Below, in pieces: positions 32,001 through 57,944 of a DNA stretch of 64,000 nucleotides. Origin of the DNA: Strigamia acuminata (taxonomy: Eukaryota). A program made the translations under genes and the position numbers. The DNA lies in contig OX442314.1 of the NCBI GenBank assembly GCA_949358305.1, forward strand, positions 19,158,001-19,222,000. Direction: 5' to 3'. The notes under the pieces were generated by a model that saw only the letters and a list, made by a program, of their open reading frames with translations, had not been told where the DNA came from and searched no databases. Each line of letters begins with the position of its first letter. The stretch's first letter is position 1.

Positions 32001-33379
32001 TCAAGTGAGGTGAAGTATTTTGCCTGATTAGTATTGTGCATGAGCAAATCAATACTGGGCATTTGGATTGCATTGATTTCGGTGATCGCATTTAGCCATC
32101 GGTAATCAATACATAACCTATATGTGCCATTTGGTTTGGCAACTATTACGGGATAACTTATGTAAGGTCCCGTAGATTTCTCAATGAGATTCTCTGCTTC
32201 TAGCTCTTCAACTTGTTTAGTCATAATCGCAATTTTAGCTGGATTGTACATGCGAAACGGTTGTTTTTTCCATTTCGCGTCCTTTTTAAACGTAATTTTA
32301 TGCTTAGCAAGGTTCGTACAACCAACTTTGTCCCGAAAGACGTGCTTGATTCCGGAAATTACTTCTAGTAATTTGGTCTTTTCCTCGTCGGAGCAATCAC
32401 AATCTTTCACCAACAATTCTTCCCAATTGTCGGGTGTATGAGTGACTGTTCCGTCGTCTTTTAGTGTGCGTAACCTCGCTAGACTGTCATTAAATTCGTT
32501 ATCTACGTAAGGCGCAGTCCAACCAGGTTTGTTGTCACAATCAAATACAGCTCGTGCTGGATTTAAATTAATTGTTGTACGACGCATAAAATTGTGTCCT
32601 AAAATTAGGCCACACACATTTCGGTCTAAAATGATGAAATTCATTGGAGTGAATTCTACTCCATCTGCCCATTGAACACAAAGGGTTATTTGTCCTAGCG
32701 GGATATGAGTTATACCGACGGCACAAACTTTCATATTTCGTGGACAATCTTGAATGAAGTCAGGGGAGGCACAAGTACTATCAAGTAATTGTAATCCAAT
32801 AAAACATTGGGTGGCTCCTGAATCCATTAAAGCATTGTAGGTGAGTCCACCTATTGTTATTCTCATTCGGGGGTCGTCGATACTGTTTCCCAAACGTTTG
32901 ATGTGTTCAACTACTTCAGCTCTCTTGAGCTGATGTTCTTTGACATATTTACGAAGTCTATGATGTCTAGATAATTTTGAGGAGATATCTAAATTTTCCA
33001 TCATTGCCTCCAAACTTTCGCATACTCCTCCACTAGAACTAGTGGTTTCCTCTCGAACAGGAGGATTTATAGCGTTTTCGATTATTGCATTCAAGGACTC
33101 TCGCCAAGATTCGTCCCCCTTATCCGCAGGAAAGAGGTCGTCATCGAATGATGTAAATGGATTTTCGGTCTCTTCCATCGAAAAAGGAGTGTTGGGATAA
33201 GGTTCCTTAAATACATACTTTGGATTCCTTTTCTTAGTTTTACGATTAGGTCGTTTAATTTCCTCATCTTGAATTACTAATTTATTCAGAGTTTCGTTTA
33301 GAACATTTTCTATTTCTGAGGACAATGTACTACTCTGGTTTTTTAGGGGGTTTTCGGTAACCCCCTCTATTAGTTTTTT
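29012..33379 (-). pseudogene. pol: E2 pol (PR-RT-RNaseH-IN) with one in-frame TAG in RNase H
   Basis: LMDSGA, YLDD, TDAS, HHCC/DDE and GPW motifs; TAG at 31292-31294 (DK*IKTPRPVAYAS) with the frame continuing. Confidence 0.93.
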
Positions 33380-35481: not shown

Positions 35482-36267
35482 AATAAAAGTTTTAAATTCT
35501 TTATTACTAAAGAACGATAACACACTTTATAAAAATACACTTCAAAATAACAATACACTTCGATAAGGTTAAGTTTAAACTCCACGGGGTGGTTAAACGT
35601 GTTAAACTATCGACAAACTTTAAGCAATCAAATGAATCCTACTACAAGTAAACTAGCGTCGGGTGAGAAATGCGCTTTAAACTATTTGTTAAAATAATAG
35701 ATGAAATACACTTAACTTTAGCTGGTTTACGGCGTGGAAAATTCGAATCGGGACTGAACGGGACGGCGTGGTCAAGATGGCTACTGGAACACGTGTCTGC
35801 AGGTCTGGTCTGGATACGAATGGTCGTCTGTAGTCTGGATCCGCGTGGCATCGAGGATCGATAATCCTTTAATCCCTCGACACTTTATTGGTGGAAAGTT
35901 ATTTTATCCAATGATAAAATGGAAACTAATCCTTTATTTTAGTAGTTTTCTACTACGTCCGCACTTTGGCCTGGTCAATCTCGTTATTGATTGGATATTT
36001 CTTTCGAAAATATACAACTAACATTAAAATTTTACCAAAACCTTTTTTCGTGAAAATTAAAATTAATTTTACTTCGATTTTAAGTGTTTTTTCAACACAA
36101 CGAAACTTTCCCTTTAATGTTAGAGTTCTCTCGAATCCCAACGTTCTTAAAGAGAATTTCCTACTTCGCAAAAGCAGAAACATATAAAAGTTTTGAAATG
36201 TTATAATCTTTATTTATCTCAATTTTCACTTTTATTTAAATTCTATAAATTTAAGACTGTGCAACCT

Positions 36268-36285
36268 ATCTCGGTGGGACCTCCA
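36268..36285 (-). promoter_or_regulatory. E2 primer-binding site, tRNA-Gln
   Basis: Same 18-mer as the E1 PBS, 2 nt from the LTR. Confidence 0.9.
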
Positions 36286-36287
36286 CG

Positions 36288-36981
36288 TGTGACGGTGACG
36301 ACCACAACTCCTATCGCATGATAGTACCGGGTATAAGTCGCGCAAATAGTGAATAAAATACGAGATAATAAAGACAACAGAGTTTCTCAAAACGTGACAT
36401 TTATTGGTTTTATCCAATACAATCAATTACTAAAGTTATACAAATTCTAATGCCGACATTTGGCAAGTTAATTTACAAGTTAAACTATACAAATAAATCG
36501 GCCAAATGGCCCTAAAATAATAACATTACGGTTATTGGTGATCCGGGGTTCGGGAACGGCAAAACGCCCGCTCGACCGAGTTAAAGATGTCATCTACGCG
36601 TAGCCGGGCTGGCTGTGTCCTCGCGGCTTCCGTCGGCGCTCCGTAATCGTGAAACTGGTTCCTTCGCGTTCCTTCGCGTTCCAGGTTCGTATATCGTGTA
36701 ATGGTCCGTGTAATGCTTCTTGGTTCGATCCGAGAGGTGCGGTTGACTTTTAACTGCACCGCCACAACTAGGGTTGGAAATTGGTAATGAATAAATGAAG
36801 TCATTTATTCTTCAAGGTTCCACTTCTGAATTATAATTAATTCGGGATGTTGTGAGTTTAATAAATTAACTCAATAAATTGTATTCAATTTATTGTTACG
36901 AATTTGATTCGTCATATGGTGAAACAAGTCTCGTGACTTGCTTCGATTGTTAACTTGTTGCCAAGTTTAAACAATTAATGT
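36288..36981 (-). repeat. E2 5' LTR, PBS-proximal part
   Basis: Matches the E2 3' LTR from 24455; interrupted by E3. Confidence 0.95.
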
Positions 36982-37997
36982 TGTTGTGACCCGACTGGAC
37001 CGGGGTCAACGAAGAGTTTCTCTCGTGACCTCGTTTCGGGTGTAAGGGGAGCCGCAAGCGCGTCTCCCTTCCCTCAGTGCATTGACATCTAGTCAATGGA
37101 CAGGCGTCTGCCCTGAGGGAGTGGGGATGGCTCGTCCACCCCACCATTGGGTGATTCCGGTCACCTGTCAACCCCGCTTTGTGCAAAGGAATGTGCCTTG
37201 CACTGAGCGGGCAGAACCAACACAACCATCAAACGAGAAACACACGTAAACCCGTCGTCCTACAAGATCAGGCCCAAGTAAATATACTGGGATTGACCAA
37301 GGACAAAGGACAATTTACCGTGAGTACGTTTGGTCAGTGTCAAACTCCGCAGAGTAACCTGCGAGATAAGATTACCACACTATTTTAGCACACCAGCTAG
37401 AAATAGTAAAAACCACTCCAGTTTAGCGAGTTGTGCAGACAAACGGTCGCACAAGCCTAAACTGCAGTAAAACCACGACGAGCGTTCCCGCCGCTGTGTG
37501 ACCGCCGGGAGCCAGAAGAGTCCGCCGCTGTGTGATCGCCGGACACCACACAAAAACCTAGACAACAGCCCGAAGTAAGCCTTTTAACTAAGCATTCACT
37601 CGCGCCCGACCAGCGTGAGCCCGAAGGACCAGCCAGAGACGAGCCGAGGACGCCATATTGCCACGCCGGCCCAAGACGACACCACGTTGCCACAACGAGG
37701 ACGCCATCTTGGACACGACCGAGACAACAGACGACCTCGCCGATTCCAGCCAGCTTTCATCATACCTTTACCTTTCCATTTCCCTTCACCCATTCCGATT
37801 TACCTTTTACCTACCTTTCATATATATATATAAGATATATCTGTACATTGTCCCACAGAATAAATCTATATTATATTTTACCTTTTATATCTGTGTAATC
37901 ATTTCTTTGGGTAAACCGCTTGAGACAAAGCGGTAGTGAGTTAGTCGAATTAAGTAATCAACCCACGAGTTAGCGACGGTTAGAGTAGAGCGCGACA
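36982..37997 (+). repeat. E3 5' LTR
   Basis: TG..CA; direct repeat of 49429-50444; AATAAA at ~37859. Confidence 0.97.
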
Positions 37998-37999
37998 CG

Positions 38000-38017
38000 T
38001 GGGGGCCTGTCCGGGAT
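38000..38017 (+). promoter_or_regulatory. E3 primer-binding site, tRNA-Pro-like
   Basis: TGGGGGCCTGTCCGGGAT versus the canonical tRNA-Pro PBS TGGGGGCTCGTCCGGGAT (16/18). Confidence 0.85.
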
Positions 38018-38069
38018 CAAGTTGAATAACTGATTCTAACCTGTGATTACATCATACCCAAAGCAAGAA

Positions 38070-41000
38070 ATGGCAGATAATACCCGAGTAACAGATTCCG
38101 ACTCCGACGCAAACAAGAGAGCCGGCAGTCGTAAAGGCGCCGACTATCACTTGCGATCTGGAGGTCCCTTACCCAAAGCCTCAGCGCACGAAGCGAGGCA
38201 AAAACGGCGTAAGCCTAAACCCGATCGTAGAAGCGCATCAGAGGCATCGCACCCGTCTCGCGCCGAGACGAGGCAGCGATTGGACGAGACAGAGCGGGGT
38301 GAAGAGCAATCTCACTCCAAACTGCCGCGTTCTAACCGTGACGGCGAGACGAGCGGAAACGAGGTTTTATCCCGTAACCAATCGCCTCGTCTAACGCACG
38401 ACACCGAGGTGGGCAGTCCGAAAGCAGCGTCTCCGATACAAAAGACGGCCTCAAATACGACCGCTAATTCGGCACTAAACACGCCAGTTACGCACAGTCG
38501 ACCAGCCTCGGTAGTGTCTGAAGGGCACAAGTCCAACTCGTCCTCTGTCAAGCGTGTTTCAAGCCAGCCTTACAGCGTCTCGGGCACCTTGATTGATGCG
38601 ATGCAGTTGGCACAAGCGGAGGGAGTGAGATACACCCTTCCGACGGGGAAGATTACCGTGTACGAAACGTTACAAATCGTACGTGCAGCTTTAAAAGCGC
38701 ACAGTGTATCCCCACAAATCACCATTGTTGAAGGTGCACACGCTCAACAATTGGTTGATTCCGCTCAATTTGAAGCGGATGCAGAGAATGAGGCTCGACA
38801 AGCCATTCGCGAGAGACGGAGGAAGCTGGCGGAAAGAGAAGCGCAAGCTCTCGAGTACGGCAGAACCCAGCCCAATCCGACTACTCCCGAGGAGGTAGAA
38901 ATAGTTGACCGAGCCCTGAGAGCACATCGATATGCTTTCCACTCGCAACAAGAAGCAGAGCGAGCATTTATGGCCAGATTGCGACGAGATGACCCGAAAT
39001 CCGTTCGCAAACCAGAGGTCAGTTCATCCGAGCTGTCCGACGAGAGCCTAGAGGGAGACCCAAAGCGCACGCCGAAGGCCAAACCCAAACCCCAGCCGGA
39101 GAGGGCAACACCAGCTACTCCGCGCAAGAGAGATGCGTCGGCCAGAGAACAACAAACTCGGCCCCGCATGCAAGCTCTCGATTCAGCCACAAATAATGCG
39201 ATAACGCGGTTAATCAACGCTAATAATGCTAGGCGAAATGAAGAGCAAGCTCTCACAAGCCAACAGCAAGATAATCCGCAAGGGACTGAGTGGCAACAAC
39301 CAGTGCCCATCCTTAAAGACGACGAGTCGTCAAGGAGACAATCGCATGATCGCACCTCTTCGCGAGAAGAAGGCAAACGCGATGAAAGACCGAAATATTA
39401 TCACTACGGAAATAGTGATTCGTCGTCAGATGGACTGGAGTCAAATGCACCCAGTCATCACGATTCGGAGAGAGGTTCCGGAGAAAGACGAAGGGAAAGA
39501 GAACGCGATGAACGCAGGGAAAGGGAACGTGACGACCGTCGTAGGGGCCGGAAAGAGTCAAACTCTTCACGGCGCAACCCGCCACGCCGCTCACCGTCTC
39601 CCGACCCCAGCTCCGACCCCTCATCCAACGACGACAGACGAAAGGAGAAATCAAGTAATCGCCGGAAGAGATCCAACTCTCCGCGCGATAGAGAGAAACG
39701 ACGTCGATCGGAAAATAGCGACCACCGACGGGAGGAGTTTCAGGACCTTCCCCGACAAAGCGCGTTTACCGATTCGACGGGTCGGCAGTATACGATGGGA
39801 GAGCTTGGAAGAGCCCTACTCGGCTCGTTGAAGGCCGAGGGAATCGATCTGAGCAAACGAAACGATCGTAATCGTAGCACTGGCGACCGCGTAAAGAAAA
39901 AATACGCTGTCTCCCGACGTGACACCATGAGTGTTACCGGGAATATTAGGTGGCAATTTTATATTCAGAACCGTTTCGACGGGTCATGGAAAGCGGGAGA
40001 TCGCTTCCTTGACGAAGTAATTCGAATTAAGACTGCCACCAAAGCCACCGTAGGAGACATGCTCACCCACGGTATTGTCGAGCTAATGACAGGCTCGGCA
40101 CGTGAGTGGTACCAAGGATTGAAAGGCGTCAATTGGGACGACTTTTTAATGAGATTCGACCTACGCTACGGCGAGACACCCGAAGAGGTGAGCCGAAAGA
40201 TGCGAGGTCTTCGCCAGATGCCTGGTGAAACCATAATGGATTACGACATTCGCGCCAGATTGTTGTTCGAAAAGGCCCCGATGGAATTTCATGCCACGGG
40301 ATTCAACCTTTTCTTTCTCGGCGGTTTGTCGGAATACTCGCAACGGGTGCTACTTGAAGAAAGGGCACCGACAGGAGGCAGCTACGAGGAGATGAGCGCC
40401 TTCCTGTTTGAGAACACGATAGATATCGAGAAAAGATATTATTCCGCTTTACCAGAAGCGGAGAAAGCAGCAACCGCTAAACGTCTCAAGTTGAGTGCGG
40501 AAAGATATGGGGCGACAGATAAAATTATGCGCCCTACTGAATATCTTAGCGGTATAATGGAGCTGGCAGAAGCTAGCGTTGGTTTACAAATAAAAAATAA
40601 ACTGACATCCACGCTGCCTTCCAACCCTTTGGCCGCCCCTAAAAAGGCACCGACAGCGTCAGCCATGCAAGCGACACTGGAGGAGGTCAAGGAGGGGGAG
40701 GAAGCCGGACAAGATGCCGGAAAATCAGACAAAAAAGAAGAAAAAGACGATTATTCGACGGACGAAGAAATACGAAGCTATCGCGATACCTTATCAACGG
40801 GTTGCGATGAGGAAGGACCGCTAGTACATCTCATCCATCGAGATAGAGCGGTAGAAGAATTTCGCGCCAGGTTAAAACCAAATGCCGGCCGAATTCCGAA
40901 GTATTTTCGAAAAAATTACACGCCACCGTCGAAAGCAGACCCTGAAAAGAAAAAATCGACTGAAGCCCCAAGAGACAAATCAAATATTCGTTGTTTCAAG

Positions 41001-41153
41001 TGTAACCAACCGGGTCACTATTCCAATGAGTGCCCAAGAACAGCGAAAGAAGACGCTAAATTTGACGCAATAATGAAGCAGATGGCAGAGATTAAACTCG
41101 CCATGGCAAAAAACGAGTCAAAAAACGAGTCAGCGCAGGCGGCGAAGAAATAA
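38070..41153 (+). CDS. gag: E3 Gag (~1027 aa), long Arg/Ser/Glu-rich N-terminal half, CCHC knuckle
   Basis: RFDGS..FL capsid-like region; LRQMPGETIMDY; CFKCNQPGHYSNEC. Confidence 0.92.
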   Translation: MADNTRVTDSDSDANKRAGSRKGADYHLRSGGPLPKASAHEARQKRRKPKPDRRSASEASHPSRAETRQRLDETERGEEQSHSKLPRSNRDGETSGNEVLSRNQSPRLTHDTEVGSPKAASPIQKTASNTTANSALNTPVTHSRPASVVSEGHKSNSSSVKRVSSQPYSVSGTLIDAMQLAQAEGVRYTLPTGKITVYETLQIVRAALKAHSVSPQITIVEGAHAQQLVDSAQFEADAENEARQAIRERRRKLAEREAQALEYGRTQPNPTTPEEVEIVDRALRAHRYAFHSQQEAERAFMARLRRDDPKSVRKPEVSSSELSDESLEGDPKRTPKAKPKPQPERATPATPRKRDASAREQQTRPRMQALDSATNNAITRLINANNARRNEEQALTSQQQDNPQGTEWQQPVPILKDDESSRRQSHDRTSSREEGKRDERPKYYHYGNSDSSSDGLESNAPSHHDSERGSGERRRERERDERRERERDDRRRGRKESNSSRRNPPRRSPSPDPSSDPSSNDDRRKEKSSNRRKRSNSPRDREKRRRSENSDHRREEFQDLPRQSAFTDSTGRQYTMGELGRALLGSLKAEGIDLSKRNDRNRSTGDRVKKKYAVSRRDTMSVTGNIRWQFYIQNRFDGSWKAGDRFLDEVIRIKTATKATVGDMLTHGIVELMTGSAREWYQGLKGVNWDDFLMRFDLRYGETPEEVSRKMRGLRQMPGETIMDYDIRARLLFEKAPMEFHATGFNLFFLGGLSEYSQRVLLEERAPTGGSYEEMSAFLFENTIDIEKRYYSALPEAEKAATAKRLKLSAERYGATDKIMRPTEYLSGIMELAEASVGLQIKNKLTSTLPSNPLAAPKKAPTASAMQATLEEVKEGEEAGQDAGKSDKKEEKDDYSTDEEIRSYRDTLSTGCDEEGPLVHLIHRDRAVEEFRARLKPNAGRIPKYFRKNYTPPSKADPEKKKSTEAPRDKSNIRCFKCNQPGHYSNECPRTAKEDAKFDAIMKQMAEIKLAMAKNESKNESAQAAKK

Positions 41154-44100
41154 CTTCTCGACCGTCTGCGCCATTCATGAAGAAGAAGGGGTTTAACAAA
41201 GGGTTCGATAAGCCGCCACCAGTCAAAGAAATGGGTAGTGACATAGCTAACGCCCAAATTCAAGACAGGGCCAACAACGCTTTGCAGGTAATTACCGCAA
41301 ACGCTGAGGCTGAGGCGGAAGAACCGAACCTACTGCTTGAAGAATTACCTCAAGTAGTCGAAGACACAGAAGAATTTCGTGTTTTCATGTGCAACGTGGC
41401 GGTCGAATACACCAACCGCCTATGCATGTTGCCCATGACAATAGAACGTGAAAAAATTATGGGACTACTAGACTCGGGAGCAGATCGCTCGTTCGTTTCC
41501 GAAGACATAGTAGCATCATTGGGTCTCACCGATAAGATAAAAGGCGTTAATAAAAATATACGTCTAAAAACCGCCAACGGAATGGCGCGTCCAAAAGGAG
41601 TTATATTATTGACCATGGAGTGGCTCGGAGGGGTAGAACAGCACCCTTTCCTGGTCCTGCCCACATGCGACAGAATTTTTCTGTTGGGCTTAGACCTCAT
41701 GGCGTCAATGGAAATACAACCAAATCCAATAACGAAATCTTGGAATTATATCAGAAATGATAAGGAAAGACCCGCAATTGTCGTGCCACCAGCTCTTGTA
41801 AAAGAAGCGGCCGACAAGACACAGTGGGAGAAAGGCCTAAAGAAATTCGTTCAAGACTACGATTTTAAAGCATTCGTAACAGAATTGCAACGGGACAATG
41901 TAGTGGAAACACTTGTCGCCGACGCCGCTTTAGAATTAAACGAAGCGGCAGCCCTACGAAGGGTCCTACTTAAATATGAGGGGATCCTGTCGAAAAAACC
42001 GGGCCGAACGAATAGGGCTATTCACGAAATTAAATTGACGGATAATAAACCTATACGAGTTGCGTATAAGGGAATGAACCCGCAAAAACGTGAAATAGTG
42101 CAAAAAATGTGCCAAGAAATGCTAGACAGTGGCATTGTCTCCGAGGCCCAGGGAGAATACGCGACGCGGGTTGTGCTCGTGATGCGCCCGGGCTCGGACC
42201 CACGCCTATGCATTGATTACCGCCCATTAAACGCGGTGACAGAGATAGATCCCATACAGATGCCGTCTATCGAATCCATTTTGAGAGAGCTTAGCCCCTT
42301 TTCTTGGGTTACGACGATGGATCTGTCGAAGGGGTACTGGCAAGTTGAGATGAGGCCAGAGGATAAGATAAAAACAGCATTTTACTCGCCAATTGGACGG
42401 TTGATGTTCAACGTCATGCCATTTGGTTTAGTGAATGCTCCCAGTACCTTTCAGAGGCTAATCGAAAGCGTATTGGGTGATATCCTGCATCAGTTTGTAT
42501 GGGCATACCTAGATGACATAGTTATTGCCTCTAAAACATTCGAAGAGCACATTGAGCACATCGACCAAGTGCTCACCCGGCTGGCAAAAGCTGGGTTACA
42601 CGTGCATCCGGGCAAGAGCAAGTTCTGTCGAAAGGAGCTTGCCTTCCTGGGTTATCGCATTGGAGTCAATGGTTTAGCTATTGGCCCCGAAAAAATCGAT
42701 GCGATTAATCGTTTCCCACCACCCGAGGACGTTAAAGGTGTCCAACGGTTTATGGGAATGATAAACTTCTTCGGCAGGTTGCTACCGGGTCTAGCTGAAG
42801 TGGCAGCCCCAGTTACCGACCTCCTGAAGAATGAAAACGAATTTGTATGGTCAAATGAGTGCAACATCGCATTTAATGCAATAAAGAGGATGCTGACGGA
42901 AGTCGGCGTAATGCCTCTACCCGACTTAAACCGGCCGTTCATATTACACACGGACGCCAGCAGAGTTGGGTTAGGAGCGGCGTTGCTCCAAACACACGTG
43001 CGCGACGGAGTCGAACAAGACCTGCCGTGCATGTTTATAAGTCGCAAACTCCAAGGCGCTGAAAAGAATTACAATGCCACCGAGTTGGAGTGTTTGGCCG
43101 TTGTGTGGGCCATAAGGAAATTCAGAGATTATCTCGAATATACCAAATTTGTGGTCCACACAGATCATCAAGCGTTACAATGGCTGATGAAATTAAAAGA
43201 GCCAGCCGGTCGACTAGCCAGATGGCAGTTAGAACTGATGGCATGCGACTTGACCATTCAATACAAGCCCGGCAAATATAACGTCGTGGCTGACGCTCTG
43301 TCACGGGCACCAGTGTCAGATCCAATCGACGCTGACGATGATGGCGAGGATGACTCCCGCATCATTTATTGCCCTACGAGTTGTCACCGTTGGGATTTAA
43401 GGAAGATGAATGAAATTCCCACCGCGTCTCCGGCAGACGTAAAATTCTGTGGATTCTGGACGCGGTTATACCAACCAGCTGCTGACAATTACCCAAACGC
43501 AAAGAAGGAATTTAAGCTAGAGCGGAGAATAAATGACCCGCTTCTAAGCGCCTTCCACGCTCGTGTCGGCAAGCAAATGAAAAGCAATCCCCCAACAAGG
43601 GAGGAAATAATTGTGCAACAAAAATTAGACAAAAAATGTCAGGACAGAGCTAGATTCGTACTGACAGGAAGATATCCGCCCAACTTAACCAGAAGGCAGA
43701 AGCGTCGTTATGCACACGAATCCATAGATTACCTATTGGATGACGGCCTTTTAGTGAAACATCACCCAAATCACCAAGATGACTTGAGTGAATCGGACAC
43801 CGCAGTAAAGGTAGTAATACCTGCTTCCTTAATCGGTCGCGTGCTGTGGTTGTTACACGGGCACCCGCTTGCGAGCCATGCGGGAGTAAGCAGAACACTC
43901 TATCGTGCTACACAGCTTTTTCACTGGACAGGGATGAAAAAAGATATTGCTCTTTTTGTCCACCAATGTCAGCGATGTCAAGCGTGCAAGCCGAGGAGTA
44001 AATCACCATTCGAAACTATTTTCTTAGGGCCTTACGCGCCTTTTGATTGTTTAAGTGTCGATGTGATGGGCCCAAAACCCGTTACGGGAAATAAAAATGC

Positions 44101-45247
44101 GTACATTATCGTTATAATGGACGTGGCAACTCGTTGGCCCGAGTTGTACGCCGTCGCTAGACCTTCAGCAGAGAAAATCGTTGAATGTATCTACGACGTG
44201 GCGTTACGTTACGGATTTCCACGTAAAATAATATCCGATAACGGACCCCAATTTATCTCGAAAATTTGGGGTAAGTTTTGTGAGAAATTCGGGATTGTGG
44301 CGTCACATACTTCGACCTACAATCCCAGAACAAATCCCGTTGAGCGACTCAACAGGGACATTAAATATGCACTAAGCATATTCACTGACATCCACAATAG
44401 GTGGGATGAATACTTGAGGGAGATCGCGTTCAGCATACGAACAACAGTCTCGAGGACGAGAGATTTTTCTCCGGCCTACCTCAACTTCGCCCGAGAGCTA
44501 CGAGTGCCTTGGGACCCACGAGTGGCAGAGTCGGTAAATGTGGTGGACCCAGAGAAACCACATGAGTATGTGTATAAATTGGAGCAAACAATTTCGAACA
44601 CATACAAGCATATGATGGCGCACATTTTTAACATGCGCGACCGCATTTTACAAGATAAAAGCGGTGGAAAATTCGTGAATTTCGAGATCAATGATTTGGT
44701 GTGGAAAGATGCACACACCCTCTCAAATGCAGCGAGAGGAATCACCGCCAGCTTGGCCGACAAGAGAGATGGTCCATATGTGATCATCGGCAAGCATGGC
44801 GGTAACGCGTATAAATTACGTAAGCTCGAGGACAATACCGAGCATAAGTCGATACAAGTACGAGAGTTAACTCCGTACATTCCGGAATTCCCGCAAGAAA
44901 TGTGGGCCAAGGGCCAAGTCAAGTCTAAAACTGACGGCCAAATCGTCGATATGTTCGCTGGCGAGTCGGAAAAAGCACCGCCAAGTGACAACGAGGAGTA
45001 TTTCGACGCCCCTTCACCTCCGGTCAACGAGATCGTTGAATCCGTTCCGGATCCAATTTTGGTCGGGGGGGAAACAGGAGAAACTCCTGAAACAAACACA
45101 AAAAACACGGATAAAAAAGAAAACAATAATGAGGAGGTACAGACACAAAAAACAACAAAAAATATCGTACCTGCCTCGATCCGTAACCTGCGACCAAAAA
45201 GAGATAATCCGTTTATAAAAGGCGGAAAGGTCGTAGGAAAGAAGTAA
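41120..45247 (+). CDS. pol: E3 Pol (PR-RT-RNaseH-IN), -1 frame relative to gag
   Basis: LLDSGA, YLDD, HTDAS, HHCC, DDE and GPY motifs; frame open from the slippery site at 41120. Confidence 0.96.
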   Translation, partial: KKRVSAGGEEITSRPSAPFMKKKGFNKGFDKPPPVKEMGSDIANAQIQDRANNALQVITANAEAEAEEPNLLLEELPQVVEDTEEFRVFMCNVAVEYTNRLCMLPMTIEREKIMGLLDSGADRSFVSEDIVASLGLTDKIKGVNKNIRLKTANGMARPKGVILLTMEWLGGVEQHPFLVLPTCDRIFLLGLDLMASMEIQPNPITKSWNYIRNDKERPAIVVPPALVKEAADKTQWEKGLKKFVQDYDFKAFVTELQRDNVVETLVADAALELNEAAALRRVLLKYEGILSKKPGRTNRAIHEIKLTDNKPIRVAYKGMNPQKREIVQKMCQEMLDSGIVSEAQGEYATRVVLVMRPGSDPRLCIDYRPLNAVTEIDPIQMPSIESILRELSPFSWVTTMDLSKGYWQVEMRPEDKIKTAFYSPIGRLMFNVMPFGLVNAPSTFQRLIESVLGDILHQFVWAYLDDIVIASKTFEEHIEHIDQVLTRLAKAGLHVHPGKSKFCRKELAFLGYRIGVNGLAIGPEKIDAINRFPPPEDVKGVQRFMGMINFFGRLLPGLAEVAAPVTDLLKNENEFVWSNECNIAFNAIKRMLTEVGVMPLPDLNRPFILHTDASRVGLGAALLQTHVRDGVEQDLPCMFISRKLQGAEKNYNATELECLAVVWAIRKFRDYLEYTKFVVHTDHQALQWLMKLKEPAGRLARWQLELMACDLTIQYKPGKYNVVADALSRAPVSDPIDADDDGEDDSRIIYCPTSCHRWDLRKMNEIPTASPADVKFCGFWTRLYQPAADNYPNAKKEFKLERRINDPLLSAFHARVGKQMKSNPPTREEIIVQQKLDKKCQDRARFVLTGRYPPNLTRRQKRRYAHESIDYLLDDGLLVKHHPNHQDDLSESDTAVKVVIPASLIGRVLWLLHGHPLASHAGVSRTLYRATQLFHWTGMKKDIALFVHQCQRCQACKPRSKSPFETIFLGPYAPFDCLSVDVMGPKPVTGNKNAYIIVIMDVATRWPELYAVARPSAEKIVECIYDVALRYGFPRKIISDNGPQFISKIWGKFCEKFGIVASHTSTYNPRTNPVERLNRDIKYALSIFTDIHNRWDEYLREIAFSIRTTVSRTRDFSPAYLNFARELRVPWDPRVAESVNVVDPEKPHEYVYKLEQTISNTYKHMMAHIFNMRDRILQDKSGGKFVNFEINDLVWKDAHTLSNAARGITASLADKRDGPYVIIGKHGGNAYKLRKLEDNTEHKSIQVRELTPYIPEFPQEMWAKGQVKSKTDGQIVDMFAGESEKAPPSDNEEYFDAPSPPVNEIVESVPDPILVGGETGETPETNTKNTDKKENNNEEVQTQKTTKNIVPASIRNLRPKRDNPFIKGGKVVGKK

Positions 45248-46665
45248 AATAAATTACGAGTCGATGGCGGCACTAAAAATAAATTCTAATCGACCGATAG
45301 TGCAAGCCATCACGTTGCGAGACTCGAAGAAAATTCCGCTAAGTCCAACAAAGCGGATATCGGTCGAATTCACGTCACAAGATGGCGTGGAAGCGCGGGA
45401 CCCAAAGCAAAATTATCGGCACGGGTCGGATACCGCGTGCAAAAGACCCCGTAGCAGCAATCGCGCACGGGAGTGAAAACAAAGGAGACCCGTAGCGTAA
45501 CATGCGCACGGGTAGGTGCGCACTAGTCTCAAACACCCGGGTTCTGGAGTATATTACCCAGAATCCATCGCGATTACCTCGTGTTCACACGAACTTCCGC
45601 TTTTCACAGCTGATCGCTGCATTCGTGCGTGATCCTCGTTTTTAACGTTTTTATCGAGTTTTTTGAGATAGTTTTATCATCCTTTTTTCAATCGTGATTG
45701 AGCTTTTTGTGCGCGCTCCTCGCCATGGACGAGGAAGAGAACGACGTGCTGGCCATAGAGCACGAGGACGAGGAAAACTGGGACCGCGATGTAAACCAAG
45801 TCCATCCCGATCAGGTAGAAGTCGGCATCGGCACATGAGAACTAGTTCCGTGCTGCTGAAGAAGAAATTTTGTTGACTAATACCTGACATGAGTGCTTTG
45901 CACTCACAATAGCGTATAATTAATTATTAACCGCGATCGCTCACACGATCGTATTTTTTCCTTGTTAATTTGTTTTCGGGGTGCGAGCGCAGACTTCACG
46001 TCGCCTCGCGTCTCGAAAATTCCTCATGACTTGAGTCACGAGCGAGACAATGGGCTCGAGCCATAAATAATTTTATGACAAGGGGAGAATATTCTGTAAA
46101 AGAATAATTTTCTCCACAAGTAATTTGACGCATCGAATTGATGCAACTTAACATTCGTACGATGAATTTTTCGGTGTGTTGGATAAATTTAATTTGACTT
46201 TAACTTTTTTAAAAAAAAAAATTAGACAAAGTCCGACTTCGGAATAATTCTTTATTAGATTTATTTATTTAATAAAATTTCGACAAGCACATTTATTGTG
46301 CAATTTTAGTAATAATTTACACCCGACGAATTCTCTTTACGAATGACGGATAATTATTAATTTAATTATTAGTAATGTTCTAATTAACGTTAGAATTAAT
46401 GTGAAGTAAAATCTGATGATAAAAATCCGGATTAAAGGCTCGATTCCGTCTCGCTGTGCGTTTTGGACATGAGACAGATTTTTTACGTGATGACTTCTTT
46501 TTTTTCTATCCGACGAGGGACAATTCGTCCTACGTTTGCACCGATAGACAGGAATCGGTCTCGACGGACGGCTGCACGTATCGGCAACGTCCCTCGAAAC
46601 CAACCATTTATCTACGTATTTAAATATTAACTTTTTATTAATTGTTTATTTCTCCATCCTTCCAG

Positions 46666-49392
46666 ATGGCACTACGTAAAACATGGGGACCATTAGACCC
46701 CGCTTGCATCGCTCGTGGCGGGATATTTCGAGGCGCGCTGCCCGAATTTTACCGACGATGTTTCGGCGAGGACGCCGACCCTTGGCGCCTGCGAATACTA
46801 CATTCCCGATGCATCGCCCGACGTTGGGTACGAGACTGTACGCTCCTGGACACGTTCCCGGAGGGGATGCGCGAAGGCATCGCCACAGAGTTAGCTCGTG
46901 ACGAGGACCCGAAATCGCCAATTTTCCACCCCGGATTGTCAAGTCAGTACACTGGCACTCCGGCGGAGGAACACGTGCTGCATGCGTGGCGAGCAGCCGA
47001 GACAGAAGAGGCCCGTGAGGCCATCTATCAGCAGTATAGACAACAGCTGGTGGATACCGCTGCGGCAGTGGCCGAGCGCATCCTCCAAAACGAGGGGATG
47101 ACCGCGGATGATATTCATCTGTGGTTTGAGAGGCTGCGATTGGGAGAGAGTACGCCCCAGTGGAGACCTCGGATGGGAATTTTAACGTCCCAGGCCGAGA
47201 TGTGGCAGCTCCACCACCTGGGGATTTTGGGGCCCAAAAGCAGCTACCCGCGGAAGCGCAAGCGCTCCAAAGGCGCCGGGAACAGCCAGTCGCGTTCCCC
47301 GGTGACAACCAAGAAGCAGCGTGTCGCTCAAAACACGACTGAAAGCAACGAAGCTGGGCCATCCACTAGTACGGTGCGTGACCCTTCGCAGTATTCACGA
47401 CCGCGAATTTTCGTAAACCGTCAGATTAAGGACGGTAAGGAGTACAAGGAGGTTTGGATGTCTGGTGACGAAGAGCGAGTCTCTCGTCCCAGCACTTCTA
47501 GACGTCCGCTGACTCATCGCGAGCAGCGGAAAAAAGATCGCAAAGAGCGATACTTCGCGAGGTGCGAAGCTCGGGGCCGTCCCATCCCCGAACCCGCCTA
47601 CGTCTCCAAGAGAGCGGGTCGACGAAGTGGTAGCCAGTCAGGTGAGCGAAGCGTCCCAGCGGCAGATGCGCGGGACCTTCGCGAGATTCTGACTCAGATG
47701 AAGCGGACGAAACTGACACGTTTCGATCCCGCGATGAAACACGCCAGGAAGATGGGTGTTGTCACCAACGGAAAGGTGACCCCACACGAGGTGGCAAGGT
47801 GGCTCGCAGACTACATAAATTCGCGACCGCGACCCGATGGCATGCCAACCGCCATCGTGCAGCCTTCGAGCTCCGAACAACATCTCCCGGCGCCCCAAGT
47901 CGCAATGACTGGGGTGCAGACGACGGAGACGCCACCGCCGCCGACCAAGACGCAGCCGCCTCCGGACCTGCCGCCACCGTCGTTGTTGAATTCGAGCGAT
48001 CCGCCGGATTTACCCACCGACCGCTCAGTCCCTCTCCCCGTTGGACAGAGCATTATGCAGGAATGTCGAGCCAATTTGACCGACATTTACAGGCCGAGCC
48101 GACCCCGACCCGGTTCCTCGGCCCTGTTCTTCGAGAGGCGAGACGAAGAAGCGCGACTCGCGAGAGAAGCCGCCAACCCGACTATCTCCGAGCTCTCAGC
48201 GTTTCGCTTCGTGATGGAAGACCCAAGAGTTTCCGCACCCGCCTTGCGAGGTGTGGATCAAGCCCAGCGATATTTCATCGAATGGGCAACGGCGATGATG
48301 AGTAAGCTCTCGTGTGCCTTCACTGCGGATTCAGAGCGATCGAATCCAGTGAATCGTCGCAGCCTACAGCTATCATTGACCAAGGTCATGATGCAGCTGC
48401 TAACCCCAGCACTCTTCGGAGAAGGGCGTCAGGCGATGGCCGCATGGTCTGTCGTGGACAGAGAGGGTGTACAGGTTCCCCGTGCACTCCTCGCAGAGTG
48501 GAGTTCCATTCTGCCCGACCCTGTGTTGACTCGGTACGAGCTAACCAGGGATGTGGTAAACCCCGAATTCGAGGGGTACAAGTTGCGAAGCACGGCGTTT
48601 CGTTACACCTCCGCCACCTGGACAGCGGCGCCTACCCAACAACTGCGCGCCTTGACCATCCAGACGGAAGAATCGGCAGAGGATGTAGACATGGTGATCT
48701 CGCCGACGAGCGGAGTTCCGATTCCGCCACCGATGCCTGCGGAGATATCCCCGCAAGGACCCGCCCTGTTCGAAGTGGCGGGTAAACCAAAGCGCTTGCT
48801 GTGCCGAACGCCACCCGTCAGGTCCGTCGAGCAAACGAAGCCGACACCGCCCGGGACCTCACCGGCCCGAGCGGCGACATCAACGCAAGCAGTGATTCCC
48901 GCGGCCACCCAGAAGCCGAAGCCGGCACCACCTCCACCAGACTATTATGGGCGAATCATCGACGAGTTTCCCCATCTTTCGATGACGACGGCGACCAGGA
49001 GGTTTATCCTCGCGCAGCGGGACAAAGGCAAATCGGTCTTCATCTGGCTTCACAACCAGATCCGGAAGACTAAAGACCTCATCTTCCACCAGAGGTTGCT
49101 GAGAGCCCACCGTGCGCCAGTGACGCCAGCGGAAGCCAATGCCATCCGGCATACGAACACCGGCTTCTCCGCCTACATCCCGAGCGTTTGGTTACACGAG
49201 AGGACGCGTGCCCCGCATGAGCCAGTTGACGGCCATGCATTATGTTTCATTACGGAGCATGAGGACCCCCGTGATCGGTCCTCGGCGCTAGTAGGCGATC
49301 TACCCGCGCCACCCGGCACTCAACCGCCTGTCCCTGGAGTGAGTTACGCCCAGGTGACGGACTCAGTGTCGGGTCCCCCAGGAAAGAAGTGA
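46666..49392 (+). CDS. E3 ORF3, ~908-aa non-env accessory protein of unknown function
   Basis: Uninterrupted ORF between pol and the PPT; acceptor TTTCTCCATCCTTCCAG abuts the ATG; no signal peptide or TM segment visible; basic and Pro-rich tracts. Confidence 0.88.
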   Translation: MALRKTWGPLDPACIARGGIFRGALPEFYRRCFGEDADPWRLRILHSRCIARRWVRDCTLLDTFPEGMREGIATELARDEDPKSPIFHPGLSSQYTGTPAEEHVLHAWRAAETEEAREAIYQQYRQQLVDTAAAVAERILQNEGMTADDIHLWFERLRLGESTPQWRPRMGILTSQAEMWQLHHLGILGPKSSYPRKRKRSKGAGNSQSRSPVTTKKQRVAQNTTESNEAGPSTSTVRDPSQYSRPRIFVNRQIKDGKEYKEVWMSGDEERVSRPSTSRRPLTHREQRKKDRKERYFARCEARGRPIPEPAYVSKRAGRRSGSQSGERSVPAADARDLREILTQMKRTKLTRFDPAMKHARKMGVVTNGKVTPHEVARWLADYINSRPRPDGMPTAIVQPSSSEQHLPAPQVAMTGVQTTETPPPPTKTQPPPDLPPPSLLNSSDPPDLPTDRSVPLPVGQSIMQECRANLTDIYRPSRPRPGSSALFFERRDEEARLAREAANPTISELSAFRFVMEDPRVSAPALRGVDQAQRYFIEWATAMMSKLSCAFTADSERSNPVNRRSLQLSLTKVMMQLLTPALFGEGRQAMAAWSVVDREGVQVPRALLAEWSSILPDPVLTRYELTRDVVNPEFEGYKLRSTAFRYTSATWTAAPTQQLRALTIQTEESAEDVDMVISPTSGVPIPPPMPAEISPQGPALFEVAGKPKRLLCRTPPVRSVEQTKPTPPGTSPARAATSTQAVIPAATQKPKPAPPPPDYYGRIIDEFPHLSMTTATRRFILAQRDKGKSVFIWLHNQIRKTKDLIFHQRLLRAHRAPVTPAEANAIRHTNTGFSAYIPSVWLHERTRAPHEPVDGHALCFITEHEDPRDRSSALVGDLPAPPGTQPPVPGVSYAQVTDSVSGPPGKK

Positions 49393-49428
49393 TCGCTCAG
49401 CCCCACGGTCTGAGCTCGGAGGGGGAAG

Positions 49429-50444
49429 TGTTGTGACCCGACTGGACCGGGGTCAACGAAGAGTTTCTCTCGTGACCTCGTTTCGGGTGTAAGGGGAGCC
49501 GCAAGCGCGTCTCCCTTCCCTCAGTGCATTGACATCTAGTCAATGGACAGGCGTCTGCCCTGAGGGAGTGGGGATGGCTCGTCCACCCCACCATTGGGTG
49601 ATTCCGGTCACCTGTCAACCCCGCTTTGTGCAAAGGAATGTGCCTTGCACTGAGCGGGCAGAACCAACACAACCATCAAACGAGAAACACACGTAAACCC
49701 GTCGTCCTACAAGATCAGGCCCAAGTAAATATACTGGGATTGACCAAGGACAAAGGACAATTTACCGTGAGTACGTTTGGTCAGTGTCAAACTCCGCAGA
49801 GTAACCTGCGAGATAAGATTACCACACTATTTTAGCACACCAGCTAGAAATAGTAAAAACCACTCCAGTTTAGCGAGTTGTGCAGACAAACGGTCGCACA
49901 AGCCTAAACTGCAGTAAAACCACGACGAGCGTTCCCGCCGCTGTGTGACCGCCGGGAGCCAGAAGAGTCCGCCGCTGTGTGATCGCCGGACACCACACAA
50001 AAACCTAGACAACAGCCCGAAGTAAGCCTTTTAACTAAGCATTCACTCGCGCCCGACCAGCGTGAGCCCGAAGGACCAGCCAGAGACGAGCCGAGGACGC
50101 CATATTGCCACGCCGGCCCAAGACGACACCACGTTGCCACAACGAGGACGCCATCTTGGACACGACCGAGACAACAGACGACCTCGCCGATTCCAGCCAG
50201 CTTTCATCATACCTTTACCTTTCCATTTCCCTTCACCCATTCCGATTTACCTTTTACCTACCTTTCATATATATATATAAGATATATCTGTACATTGTCC
50301 CACAGAATAAATCTATATTATATTTTACCTTTTATATCTGTGTAATCATTTCTTTGGGTAAACCGCTTGAGACAAAGCGGTAGTGAGTTAGTCGAATTAA
50401 GTAATCAACCCACGAGTTAGCGACGGTTAGAGTTGAGCGCGACA
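49429..50444 (+). repeat. E3 3' LTR
   Basis: Direct repeat of 36982-37997. Confidence 0.97.
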
Positions 50445-50448
50445 ATGT

Positions 50449-51400
50449 TTATTATCAACTACAAAATAAATTAGGGTTAAAACACAATTGCCGTCAAAGT
50501 TCGCCTTGCTGAGCAGAACAGTATCGCGCGTGCCCTAAATAACAGTGCGGTGAGAGACGGCACTGGTATTCAGGGGGATATAGCCCGCAGTTCTGCACAA
50601 CAGAATTAATCACCCGAGATACTACTCATAAGTAGACTGCTTTGGCATCATCACCGAAGAGATATAACATTCCCAAACACATAGTGCTACTGGCGGTAAC
50701 TGCATGTTCTGCTTTGGCACCATCAGGTGATGGAGACAATCTCTTGCAGTAACAGTGCTACTGACGGTTACTAAATACTTTGGTATCACACGTGATTCTA
50801 TTGTCCGACCACGAGGATACTTATGCGGGAGGCTTTCTCCTCGGCAAGACCGTTTGACGGAAACATGAATAGTCCGAACTTCGCCTTCAGTTGACGGGGG
50901 TTGCATGGCTCAGCAGAGCCATGCTATGCATGGTCCGGTAGGACCATGCCCTGAGTAAGAAACAGTTATTTGACATGCGGAACATACCAAATAACCAGAA
51001 ATCAAGAACTAACTTAACTTCCTGTTGTCAGGGAGTTTTATACTCGGTGGGATTAGGTTCCACCAATCTCGTATCGCAGGAAGTGGATACGGAGATGCAA
51101 ATTGGGATTATGCTAATCTTTTAGCATAAACCGGAACTGGATAGCGGGGACAGGAAATGGATACACAGAACGGAAACACATTCTGAAAATGGGTTTCGTG
51201 TCGCGTACCCGTGATAAAGCAAGAATACCTGCTTTATCTTATTGAATATTGATAATATAACTTTATATTATCGATTTAGATTACATTTATTCGTAACAAA
51301 CATAATAATATGTTTGTGAACTATTTCTGCGGAGAATAGGAAGTTCGAGGTTGAATTTGCCGCTAGTACTAGTGGCGCCATCTATTGCTAATTTGTCACA
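50449..51400 (-). repeat. E2 5' LTR, distal (promoter-containing) part
   Basis: Resumes the E2 LTR after the E3 TSD; ends GTCACA followed by TSD CTGT. Confidence 0.95.
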
Positions 51401-51988
51401 CTGTGAAACACACTTTGCCACTTTGCCACACTTTGCCCTGATTGGCTTACACTAATGACGTCTTGTAAACGTCGTAACGTTCATACGACGTTCCTAACAA
51501 ATGTCCTCTGGCGGTTAATATCACCAACAAATTCTCCTCGATTCACACTTAATTCATTTAATTATACTTTACATCAAGTAAATCAACATTCTGACTTCGA
51601 TTTCTTTCAATCTACTCTCTCTCATTCGGATATTTCCCTGCATTCTTCTGCTGACCTCCAATCTCCGTAATACCTATCTGTACTTAATTTTTTCTGAGCA
51701 ATTTTCCTCTCGTGGTTCGTTATCTCCTCGTGGCTGGTTTTCTCTTCGTGGTTCGTATTGAATTCGTATTGATTATTTACGTCTCTCGTGGATCGAATCA
51801 CCGCTTTTACCTTTTCTTCCGTTTGCGTCCTCGTCGTATCGCTACTCGTCACTTTTCATTTCTCCGTCGTCTTTTGTTCTCTCGCCGTCTGTTTTTCTTC
51901 CTTTTATCGTCGTTCGATCCCGTATCAATGACGTCTAAATTCGTGTCGTCTTTATTCGTTTTAAATGCTTCGGTATTCGTATTCGGTA

Positions 51989-56070: not shown

Positions 56071-56543
56071 TTTATTTTGGTTCGTACAAAGCAAAAAATG
56101 AGTTAAGTTGGACAAATATTTTCTAAATCTAAATGAAAAGAATAAGTAACATAAACTATCCAAACAGTTCAAACACGAAGCAGCAGCAACACGAATCAAA
56201 CGAATCTTCTCGTTATTCCGTTTACCAAGAACAATTCACTCAGGAACTGAAAGTGCAAGACATGGGGCAATGGCAAATGATGGACGATACAGTAGACTCG
56301 TGAGGTCTAACGACAATATCAATCAACCCTAAATCGCCAAAAATCTGACCCAAAATCCGCCTCCGTGCGCAATTTGGAGAAAAGATTTTCCCCTCGCGCG
56401 CAGTTGGAGGCCTGCGGACAAATCGAAGATAACAGATAAAACGTCCAGAGGACGTTCAGCGTATAGTACGAATAGCTTCACGTATATAAAGAATTTGTTG
56501 TCAATACATTTTATTATTCTCGACTGTGCTGTCAAATCTCAAC

Positions 56544-57944
56544 ATGCCTTACAAGAAATCACCGTCGAGCCTAGAAAAATTGTGTTTCGATTTGGTAATC
56601 ACTCGTTATGATGTTATGGAAGATAAATTAAAATTAGCGAATTTACCTGGTAGATTTATTGATGAAATCCGTGAACGTATGCGTCTGCATGAATTCAAGC
56701 AACACGACAAACCTTACATACGAATTATGTCTTCAGACATTTTTGTTAATTCACGCACCAGATCGTTAGGTGATTTCACTTCGTTAGATCTGCCCATGGA
56801 ATCTTTATTGGACAAAATCTGCCAAGTTTGTGAAAAACTTGTAGAATTAAACTTGAATTCTTGGAGAAACAGGTGCGTTAAAATTTCATCCGAATCGTTA
56901 ATCAAACTGGTACAACATTTACCAAAAATTGAACGTTTATCCTTCAAAGCGCAGAAGAATTGTACGGACGAAGTTTTAACGGTGATTTCTAAAAATTGTC
57001 CGCTATTGACACATCTCAACATCGCTTTGACTCCTATTACCAATTGTAGTCTTTGTTTGTTACCAAGTGGGTGCCCTCGACTACAGTTTTTAAATGTCCG
57101 CCATAATGGAGTAATCACACACGAGGAATGTCTTTTCGTTCTAAACCACCTGCCACTTTTAAGAAAGTTTTTATGTCATTTTTGGGAAGTGTTTGTTGTT
57201 CCGAAAAAAGAATTTAATTCAAGCAAGACATTGCCCATTTATTTGATCAACGAAATGGCTATAGAGGATTTAGATTATTCCTCCGAAGATTTCAACAATC
57301 TGATCACTATTTTCCCAAATTTGCGCAAATTATTAGTTTTCCCGACATCAGATAATATTCTGGATTTTAATGTTGTTTTGATGTCGGCACAACGATTAAC
57401 CACTTTATATCTACGTAATGTTGTATTAGTTGATCTGAGACTTGTGGACCACCACTGTCCAAAGCTGGAGAATTTATCATTAAACAGGTGTTCTATTTTA
57501 AACGAACCTGGCAATACAGTTTTGTTTAAGAGCCTACGCGAACTACGTGTAGTTGCAACTGAATTCCCTGAATTACAATTGAAAATGCTTTTGATGCACT
57601 GCATTAATTTAGAAGATTTACAATTTGACGAATGTGCCGTCGTCTCTGACAATTTATTTTCACAACTTTTTGTAGCCAAGGCGCTTCGAAATGTGAAATC
57701 GATATCATTTTCAAAGTGCGACTCAATTACTTTCGGATGTATTGAAAAATTGTTAGAAATGAAAAGTCCGTTAAAAATGTTGATGTGCGATACAATTGAT
57801 ACTTCTGATGGTAGAATTCAAACATACATTCGAAAAGAAAACTTGGATTTGCAGTTTTTGGATTCTGCTGGGATGAAATTGTATCAATTGAAAAAAAAAC
57901 ATTTTGACATCCGCGATTTCATATTGATTCAGGAGGATGTATGA
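56544..57944 (+). CDS. Intronless leucine-rich-repeat protein (FBXL/AMN1-type LRRs) with N-terminal BC-box-like motif
   Basis: 466 aa; SLEKLCFDLV...LPGRFIDEI; repeats such as CPLLTHLNI, CPRLQFLNV, CPKLENLSLNRC, CINLEDLQFDEC. Confidence 0.85.
   Translation: MPYKKSPSSLEKLCFDLVITRYDVMEDKLKLANLPGRFIDEIRERMRLHEFKQHDKPYIRIMSSDIFVNSRTRSLGDFTSLDLPMESLLDKICQVCEKLVELNLNSWRNRCVKISSESLIKLVQHLPKIERLSFKAQKNCTDEVLTVISKNCPLLTHLNIALTPITNCSLCLLPSGCPRLQFLNVRHNGVITHEECLFVLNHLPLLRKFLCHFWEVFVVPKKEFNSSKTLPIYLINEMAIEDLDYSSEDFNNLITIFPNLRKLLVFPTSDNILDFNVVLMSAQRLTTLYLRNVVLVDLRLVDHHCPKLENLSLNRCSILNEPGNTVLFKSLRELRVVATEFPELQLKMLLMHCINLEDLQFDECAVVSDNLFSQLFVAKALRNVKSISFSKCDSITFGCIEKLLEMKSPLKMLMCDTIDTSDGRIQTYIRKENLDLQFLDSAGMKLYQLKKKHFDIRDFILIQEDV

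Follow-up and report, generated by a model that had tools for sequence, protein, structure and literature searches.

A young Ty3/Gypsy element with a long third open reading frame

The DNA analysed here (the window) is a stretch of 64,000 nucleotides from Strigamia acuminata (NCBI GenBank assembly GCA_949358305.1, contig OX442314.1, positions 19,158,001 to 19,222,000 of the forward strand), in which a complete Ty3/Gypsy retrotransposon, referred to as E3, occupies positions 36982-50444 and carries, next to gag and pol, a third open reading frame (ORF3). Its parts, in window coordinates, are as follows.

36978..36981 (left copy) and 50445-50448 (right copy), strand not given: target-site duplication ATGT, based on an empty paralogous site
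36982..37997, plus strand: 5′ long terminal repeat (LTR), 1016 bp, TG...CA
38000..38017, plus strand: primer-binding site, starting TGG
38070..41153, plus strand: gag, 1027 aa
41096..45247, plus strand: pol, intact, in the -1 frame and overlapping the end of gag
45248..46665, plus strand: spacer between pol and ORF3, 1418 nt
46666..49392, plus strand: ORF3, 908 aa, ATG at 46666, stop codon ending at 49392, no internal stop
49418..49428, plus strand: polypurine tract
49429..50444, plus strand: 3′ LTR, with AATAAA at 50306

E3 is a Ty3/Gypsy LTR retrotransposon by its paired LTRs, target-site duplication, primer-binding site, polypurine tract and gag followed by pol, the domains of which come in the Gypsy order of protease, reverse transcriptase, RNase H, then integrase. 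A single ATGT in the empty paralogous site at 25450-25495 confirmed the target duplication. The best matches to pol, each to a single domain, were 44-47% identical and mostly unnamed; named relatives came from ants, moths, a bee and a pseudoscorpion, and also from fish, amphibians and plants. The Frizzled domain fragment in the window (below) marks the host as an animal, and the insect and pseudoscorpion pol relatives make an arthropod probable. The subclade may be Osvaldo-like, and the primer-binding site may resemble tRNA-Pro. The 5′ LTR holds initiator-like TCAGT motifs at 37074 and 37334 and an AATAAA at 37859, and two AAAAAAC heptamers (41108 and 41120) lie within the gag/pol overlap. Gag combines a capsid-type Retrotrans_gag domain (residues 670-753) and one CCHC knuckle (974-989) with a disordered, basic and RS-rich N-terminus of approximately 630 residues.

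The two LTRs mismatch at 1 of 1016 positions (LTR position 1006), so the insertion is very recent and this copy has had little time to decay. ORF3 begins 1418 bases past the pol stop and ends 36 bases short of the 3′ LTR, that is, in the slot of env. In 300 base shuffles of the region the longest frame averaged 170 aa and reached 350 aa at most, compared with the 908 aa observed. An earlier, sequence-only reading of this locus had described an intact frame of about 900 aa in the env position of an element with nearly identical LTRs, and these measurements bear it out.

Variation among copies of the family

Variants were taken from Logan contigs of two coded DNA sequencing runs of one study, both of which contain E3 and, with a very high summed depth, cover 30 of 30 bins across the ORF3 region. 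Depth over ORF3 was lower than over gag and pol, but contig depth does not rank genes and carries no weight here. The counts given here refer to the best-supported 40 of 49 differing sites, all within ORF3 and scored one at a time. Twenty-five of these variants were silent and 15 were replacements, with no stop among them, and 27 of the 40 sites fell at third codon positions. The ratio of replacement to silent variation (pN/pS) was 0.21, 0.25 and 0.28 at transition weights of 1, 3 and 6, respectively (binomial P from 1e-6 to 5e-5). Replacements were concentrated in the N-terminal block of the protein (4) and in its linkers; the middle block (residues 453-665) had 1 replacement and 4 silent changes, and residues 484-622 had 0 and 3.

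The only indel listed at ≥5% in the ORF3 region lies at 46622, upstream of the ATG, and none falls inside the frame. Among the 12 indels shown of 45 for the whole element, 4 were in the spacer, 7 in the E3 LTRs, 1 in the flank and 0 in gag, pol or ORF3; the spacer accepts indels among family copies.

Low-depth contigs that are 80-84% alike to E3 covered five parts of ORF3 (residues 484-524, 578-623, 696-729, 811-869 and 875 to the end). The middle block was covered by contigs 82-84% alike, residues 811-869 by a contig 80% alike, and residues 484-524 and 578-623 were collinear on one diverged contig. This coverage of five blocks, with one collinear pair, suggests a diverged sister family in which ORF3 has been retained. 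The full coverage in both runs, the low pN/pS and the diverged contigs together argue from sequence that ORF3 is a conserved additional ORF, present family-wide and under purifying selection, and not the capture of a single copy.

The near identity of the LTRs would also suit a functionless passenger that is open only because the E3 copy is young and has had little time to decay. We regard this as extremely unlikely in view of the silent excess, the lack of stops and frameshifts among the listed variants, the retention of ORF3 in the 80-84% alike contigs and the presence, directly before its ATG, of the best splice acceptor in E3. With the readings taken as a whole, it is highly probable that ORF3 is a functional non-Env accessory gene.

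A candidate splice acceptor at the ORF3 start codon

Two features at the 5′ side of ORF3 bear on its expression.

46627..46665, plus strand: branch-point-like motifs, pyrimidine tract and AG acceptor abutting the ATG
45725..45838, plus strand: 37-codon acidic mini-ORF, a possible first exon

The AG at 46664-46665 directly precedes the ORF3 ATG and, on an approximate scoring matrix, ranked first of the 947 AGs in E3, with a score of 9.8 compared with 4.6 for the next. Of 946 AG-free upstream runs, the one before this AG (114 nt) was the longest, and at 23-39 bases upstream of the acceptor there are two YTRAY motifs resembling branch points (46627 and 46638). This is good sequence evidence for a real splice acceptor, as the sequence-only reading had proposed. 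Because the closest ATGs upstream of ORF3 are out of frame, simple scanning from a nearby promoter is argued against. ORF3 is probably expressed from a spliced subgenomic mRNA.

Possible donors are of several kinds. Candidate in-frame donors in gag at 38409, 39018 and 40188 would give a fusion of the Gag N-terminus to ORF3, as in CERV, a protein of the Caenorhabditis elegans element Cer1 discussed below. Candidate donors in the spacer lie at 45512, which would serve a spacer promoter, and at 45815, a weak donor that would join 30 codons of the acidic mini-ORF in frame to ORF3. The spacer (CpG observed/expected 1.75) is GC- and CpG-rich in its first half and AT-rich in its second, and contains AATAAA at 45248, 45278 and 46271; the two that come right after the pol stop (45248-45283, plus strand) could terminate a gag-pol message ahead of ORF3. 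As a separate observation, the unusually long disordered N-terminus of Gag (38070-39960, plus strand; about 630 aa) is rich in RE, RD and RS tracts with several basic motifs. It could itself have a part in handling RNA in the nucleus, or be the source of a first exon for ORF3.

The ORF3 protein

The predicted protein is basic (isoelectric point (pI) 9.7; 10.6% Pro, 10.3% Arg), and its gene has a GC content of 0.60. Hydrophobic blocks at about residues 1-190, 335-390, 453-665 and 755-875 are separated by basic or Pro-rich linkers. Its main parts are listed below, with confidence as the predicted local distance difference test (pLDDT) of single-sequence AlphaFold models.

46666..47235, plus strand: N-terminal predicted helical block, residues 1-190, of which only about 100-160 at pLDDT 60-84
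47248..47271, plus strand: basic tract PRKRKRSK, candidate nuclear localization signal (NLS), residues 195-202
47518..47562, plus strand: Arg/Lys-rich predicted helix, candidate RNA-binding arm or NLS, residues 285-299; pLDDT 72-77 over 281-300
48022..48660, plus strand: middle predicted helical block, residues 453-665
48928..49290, plus strand: C-terminal hydrophobic block, residues 755-875

The models were of low confidence: pLDDT averaged 40 over the full length and 39 over residues 453-665, and just two regions (residues ~101-140 and ~281-300) exceeded 70. What supports the folded blocks is only their hydrophobic content and the helices predicted in them. The earlier description of three or four folded blocks of no known family agrees with these hydrophobic blocks, the helices and the failure to find a family, and finds little backing in models at pLDDT of about 40. 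The basic tracts that had been called NLS-like are likewise present, at 195-202 and 285-299, at a density near that expected by chance. Nuclear localization of ORF3 is no more than plausible, because the basic tracts are near chance and the nuclear export signal (NES)-like patterns at chance. We dismissed the NES patterns on that ground. The protein has four K(K/R)x(K/R) motifs, and one GW/WG and one PxVxL-type match, both of these short motifs being at chance level.

By hydropathy, the only test of membrane segments applied, ORF3 had no signal or transmembrane segment (best Kyte–Doolittle 19-residue mean 1.07, best N-terminal 8-mer 1.35), in agreement with the sequence-only reading, and on this evidence the protein would be neither secreted nor membrane-bound. 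The env slot, the preceding splice acceptor and the RxKR-type sites that ORF3 carries are what an envelope protein or fusogen, or a remnant of one, used for cell-to-cell spread would have. This explanation is nonetheless largely refuted and very unlikely: besides lacking membrane segments, the protein has few cysteines (9, scattered, with no cluster; N-glycosylation sequons number 3) and a high-Pro, disordered composition, and searches of Pfam and of the PDB sequences brought up no baculovirus F, gB or retroviral Env. Errantivirus ENV ectodomains (F-type or gB-type) adopt viral fusogen folds flanked by signal and transmembrane segments (PMC13524379), and sORF2 of MDG1 elements is a transmembrane protein of about 70 aa (10.1101/2025.03.14.642691). 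A FAST-like fusogen of the sORF2 type, short (~70 aa) with a single transmembrane segment and a polybasic tail, was also rejected for ORF3, a protein of 908 aa with no transmembrane segment.

Homology and fold searches

Searches of sequence collections found no relative of ORF3. A phmmer search of 1.84 billion representatives gave 0 matches at E ≤ 0.001. Two word-seeded searches, in both of which longer fused forms were outside the search, gave 0 relatives: one among near-length proteins (7994 candidates scored) and one, run with residues 455-870 at E ≤ 10, among shorter proteins (7951 candidates). There was no match in the ESM Atlas (whole ORF3 and residues 1-190) or in IMG/VR, and none of 55 pattern matches in JGI metagenomes was confirmed. 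Pfam gave no family for the whole protein or four slices, and NCBIfam returned one row at chance level. The best match among PDB sequences (E = 0.016) was a phycobilisome linker whose score was summed over repeats and in which no one stretch was significant. Closer to home, blastp detected no similarity to 120 pol homologues and none at E ≤ 1 to the Gag of E3 or the Gag and Pol of neighbouring elements, and tblastn found no relative in the window. With the low-confidence models, Foldseek matched viral structures at TM-scores ≤0.12 only and gave no PDB match at E ≤ 0.001, and VIA-align yielded generic helical-hairpin matches only (residues 521-597, Z ≤ 8.0). These outcomes do not establish that ORF3 has new folds. 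Helix matches to FAM192A and FliH in Pfam were rejected.

These results also bear on the possibility that ORF3 was captured from a host or a virus, as a gene for a GDSL esterase or DEDDy nuclease might have been, and has diverged beyond recognition. Its GC content exceeds that of gag (0.52), pol (0.47) and host DNA (0.34), ORF3s that encode enzymes have usually arisen by capture (PMC5408684), and Pfam reported a sub-threshold GDSL match at residues 73-152 (E = 0.069 with 10 queries). That match scored 14.1 bits against a cut-off of 32.9, and we dismissed it: no G-D-S block was seen by eye, the low-confidence model is all-helical there and no SGNH enzyme appeared among the PDB sequences. With the phmmer and both word-seeded searches empty as well, capture is quite unlikely.

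The ORF3 protein therefore appears new at the level of sequence. Open-access word searches found no literature on E3 or ORF3, although a Repbase or Dfam entry could still exist.

Known third genes and a possible role in RNA handling

Extra genes are known in insect and other metazoan Ty3/Gypsy elements (PMC13524379; 10.1101/2025.03.14.642691), and extra ORFs after pol in large elements are covered in a review (PMC6431247). The closest precedent in layout is CERV of the C. elegans Ty3/Gypsy element Cer1, a homology-free nuclear protein encoded in the env slot, expressed by splicing, required for export of the genomic RNA and built of three structured domains on flexible linkers (PMC10309623). 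With ORF3 it shares the env slot and blocks on linkers, and for ORF3 spliced expression is predicted from its acceptor. The two differ in that CERV has 517 aa and N-terminal exons common with Gag, whereas ORF3 has 908 aa and its own ATG at the acceptor; in CERV there are also a leucine zipper, a Cys loop that is essential and a domain resembling a G protein (PMC10309623), and no G-like domain was detected in the low-confidence models of ORF3. No CERV homologue arose from the database searches with ORF3, which returned no matches; the CERV sequence itself was not directly compared. ORF3 may work like CERV, by analogy, and is not placed in the CERV family.

Other third genes resemble ORF3 in position. 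Those of the bdelloid rotifer elements Juno and Vesta are family-specific, follow pol and are typically expressed from spliced messages; they encode DEDDy exonucleases, GDSL esterases, coiled-coil or transmembrane proteins, none of which E3 ORF3 matches (PMC5408684). Plant aORF-3S genes, which lie after pol and before the 3′ LTR in sense orientation, share slot and orientation with ORF3, are conserved in most copies and are of unknown function; many have transmembrane segments and are env-like, whereas ORF3 has none and its host is an animal (PMC7264820). The sORF1 (~110 aa) and sORF2 (~70 aa) genes of MDG1 elements lie upstream of gag, in contrast to the 908-aa ORF3 after pol; the function of sORF1, an accessory protein found in the nucleus, is unknown (10.1101/2025.03.14.642691). 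The architecture, a non-Env third ORF in the env slot, is hence already known, and it is the protein itself that appears new. The sequence-only reading had called E3 a 'complex' retrotransposon with a nuclear accessory factor. A selected non-Env third gene, probably spliced, stands on the sequence evidence; the novelty that was implied is overstated, because a Ty3/Gypsy element whose env slot holds a spliced gene for a nuclear protein other than Env (PMC10309623) and diverse non-Env ORF3s (PMC5408684, PMC7264820) have been published. The findings that would have spoken otherwise did not appear: there was no match to a fusogen or host gene, pN/pS was well below 1 and disruption was not common among copies.

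On the anatomy of ORF3 and the CERV precedent, we propose that ORF3 is a spliced nuclear accessory protein that handles the unspliced RNA of E3 in a CERV-like manner, a reading to which we give a probability of roughly one in three (0.35). Transcription would start at the 5′ LTR or at a promoter in the spacer. The donor spliced to 46666 would lie in the leader, in the spacer or in frame within gag, the last of these giving the Gag-N/ORF3 fusion. ORF3 would enter the nucleus through its basic tracts, bind RNA via the Arg-rich helix at 285-299 and contact host factors through helical blocks on Pro-rich linkers. By analogy with CERV and Cer1, it would bind unspliced E3 RNA and assist its export or stability. 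The pI of 9.7 and the placing of the Arg-rich stretch in one of the only two regions modelled above pLDDT 70 are consistent with this role. A nuclear role of one kind or another, all such readings taken together, is rather favoured.

Several results weigh against RNA handling by ORF3. The searches run connected the protein with neither CERV nor Rev nor any RNA-binding family, whether by sequence or by structure, and its cysteines form no cluster like the essential C4-type Cys loop in the M domain of CERV. Windows as dense in Lys and Arg as the ORF3 basic tracts occurred in 42 of 500 (8-mer) and 78 of 500 (12-mer) shuffles, NLS-type basic motifs also occur in E3 Gag, and the three NES-like patterns were matched in 185 of 300 shuffles. 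Of several candidate donors, none was identified as the partner of the acceptor. Drosophila gypsy splices env with no known Rev-like protein, so the strength of an acceptor does not imply that an export factor is needed. The variants that speak for selection are differences from one copy, drawn from two runs of one study, with 9 sites omitted.

RNA folding points the same way. Segments of the spacer, chosen after a scan, folded at z-scores of -4.5 to -5.3, but gag, pol, ORF3 and the LTR fold too, with mean z of -1.5 to -2.3 compared with -0.8 for host DNA. Windows at z ≤ -3 made up 4/25 in gag, 6/34 in pol, 3/11 in the spacer, 4/22 in ORF3, 4/8 in the LTR and 0/25 in host DNA. Because stable folding is spread across E3, no dedicated response element is distinguished in it. 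Rfam gave two chance-level rows, none at gathering level, and a spacer-specific structured RNA element or internal ribosome entry site was rejected on these two grounds.

The same anatomy of basic tracts, Pro-rich linkers and helical blocks with no membrane segment fits a nuclear chromatin or transcription factor that would either transactivate the LTR or oppose silencing by PIWI-interacting RNAs (piRNAs) or heterochromatin, in the manner of VANC or the foamy-virus protein Tas. The very high depth of the E3 family in both runs is in keeping with this account, and there are precedents in VANC, an anti-silencing protein encoded by plant DNA transposons (PMC13547354), and in the predicted helix-turn-helix of the nuclear sORF1 of Drosophila MDG1 elements (10.1101/2025.03.14.642691). 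Pfam and NCBIfam, however, matched no chromodomain, zinc finger, helix-turn-helix or other DNA or chromatin family in ORF3, and the single GW/WG and PxVxL-type matches are of the kind that chance supplies. We consider this role, second in probability to RNA handling, possible if somewhat doubtful.

The NLS evidence is weak, and ORF3 could instead be a scaffold in the cytoplasm that serves to assemble particles, package RNA, aid translation or carry particles to the oocyte or nucleus. Large, disordered, basic and Pro-rich proteins suit condensate or scaffold roles, and accessory domains of plant LTR elements are predicted to oligomerize and contact many host proteins (PMC13547354). The four K(K/R)x(K/R) motifs and the lack of similarity, at E ≤ 1, to E3 Gag or the Gag and Pol of the neighbours count against a scaffold, which we judge unlikely.

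A wider claim can be framed tentatively, as less likely than not: that ORF3 is the first member of a protein family new in its folds as well, an independently evolved RNA-export factor of the Rev or CERV kind or an anti-piRNA factor; that an arthropod-type Gypsy lineage is thereby a complex retroelement; and that the unrelated basic, Cys-rich third ORF of the neighbouring E2 family (below) would show repeated recruitment of such nuclear regulators by Gypsy lineages in one host. The export of unspliced RNA and the evasion of piRNAs by LTR retrotransposons in animal germlines have been explained in few cases; among nuclear factors from the env slot, the literature searches made turned up CERV alone with a demonstrated function. 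The E3 family, being young, intact and rich in copies and having a large orphan gene that is under selection, would be a tractable second case, its value being conditional on evidence for a function, transcript or fold. In any case, ORF3 cautions against labelling every ORF in the env slot as env.

Neighbourhood of E3

E3 sits in a second copy of the 3′ internal region of E2, which abuts the E2 5′ LTR (36859-36981 and 50445-51401 compared with 25350-26446); the locus is thus a nested or tandem LTR array. E2 is itself a Gypsy element (24455-36867) with LTRs of 580 bp that are 100% identical. It has a third ORF of its own (28419-26809, minus strand) with no transmembrane segment, which opens with 129 codons from an ATG just past a pyrimidine-rich AG and continues, after an in-frame stop at 28030-28032, for 406 codons with a Cys cluster and basic motifs. 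This frame matched no Pfam or NCBIfam family and had no similarity to E3 ORF3 by tblastn or blastp. Downstream of it, a region at 26235-26354 (minus strand) is predicted to form a very stable RNA hairpin (z = -9.9, with neighbours at -3.8 to -5.6). A further element, E1, has a pol 65-70% identical to that of E2, LTRs of 1590 bp and no third ORF.

Elsewhere in the window there are host-like sequences and other repeats. Host-like exons of a matrin-type zinc-finger gene (zf-met, E = 1.1e-5) lie at 5296-6918 (minus strand), and a host-like leucine-rich-repeat ORF of 484 codons, with sub-threshold LRR matches, at 56490-57944 (plus strand). Two long inverted-repeat elements, foldback-like or like miniature inverted-repeat transposable elements (MITEs), occupy 20544-22865 and 60747-61615, the first with internal tandem arrays of 19-20 nt. 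At 59591-60139 (minus strand), within about 59403-60438, a fragment of a Frizzled cysteine-rich domain (Pfam Fz, E = 2.8e-12) follows an in-frame stop and is flanked by 60-nt repeats in inverted arrays; it looks like a piece of a host gene captured by a foldback or Pack-type DNA element.

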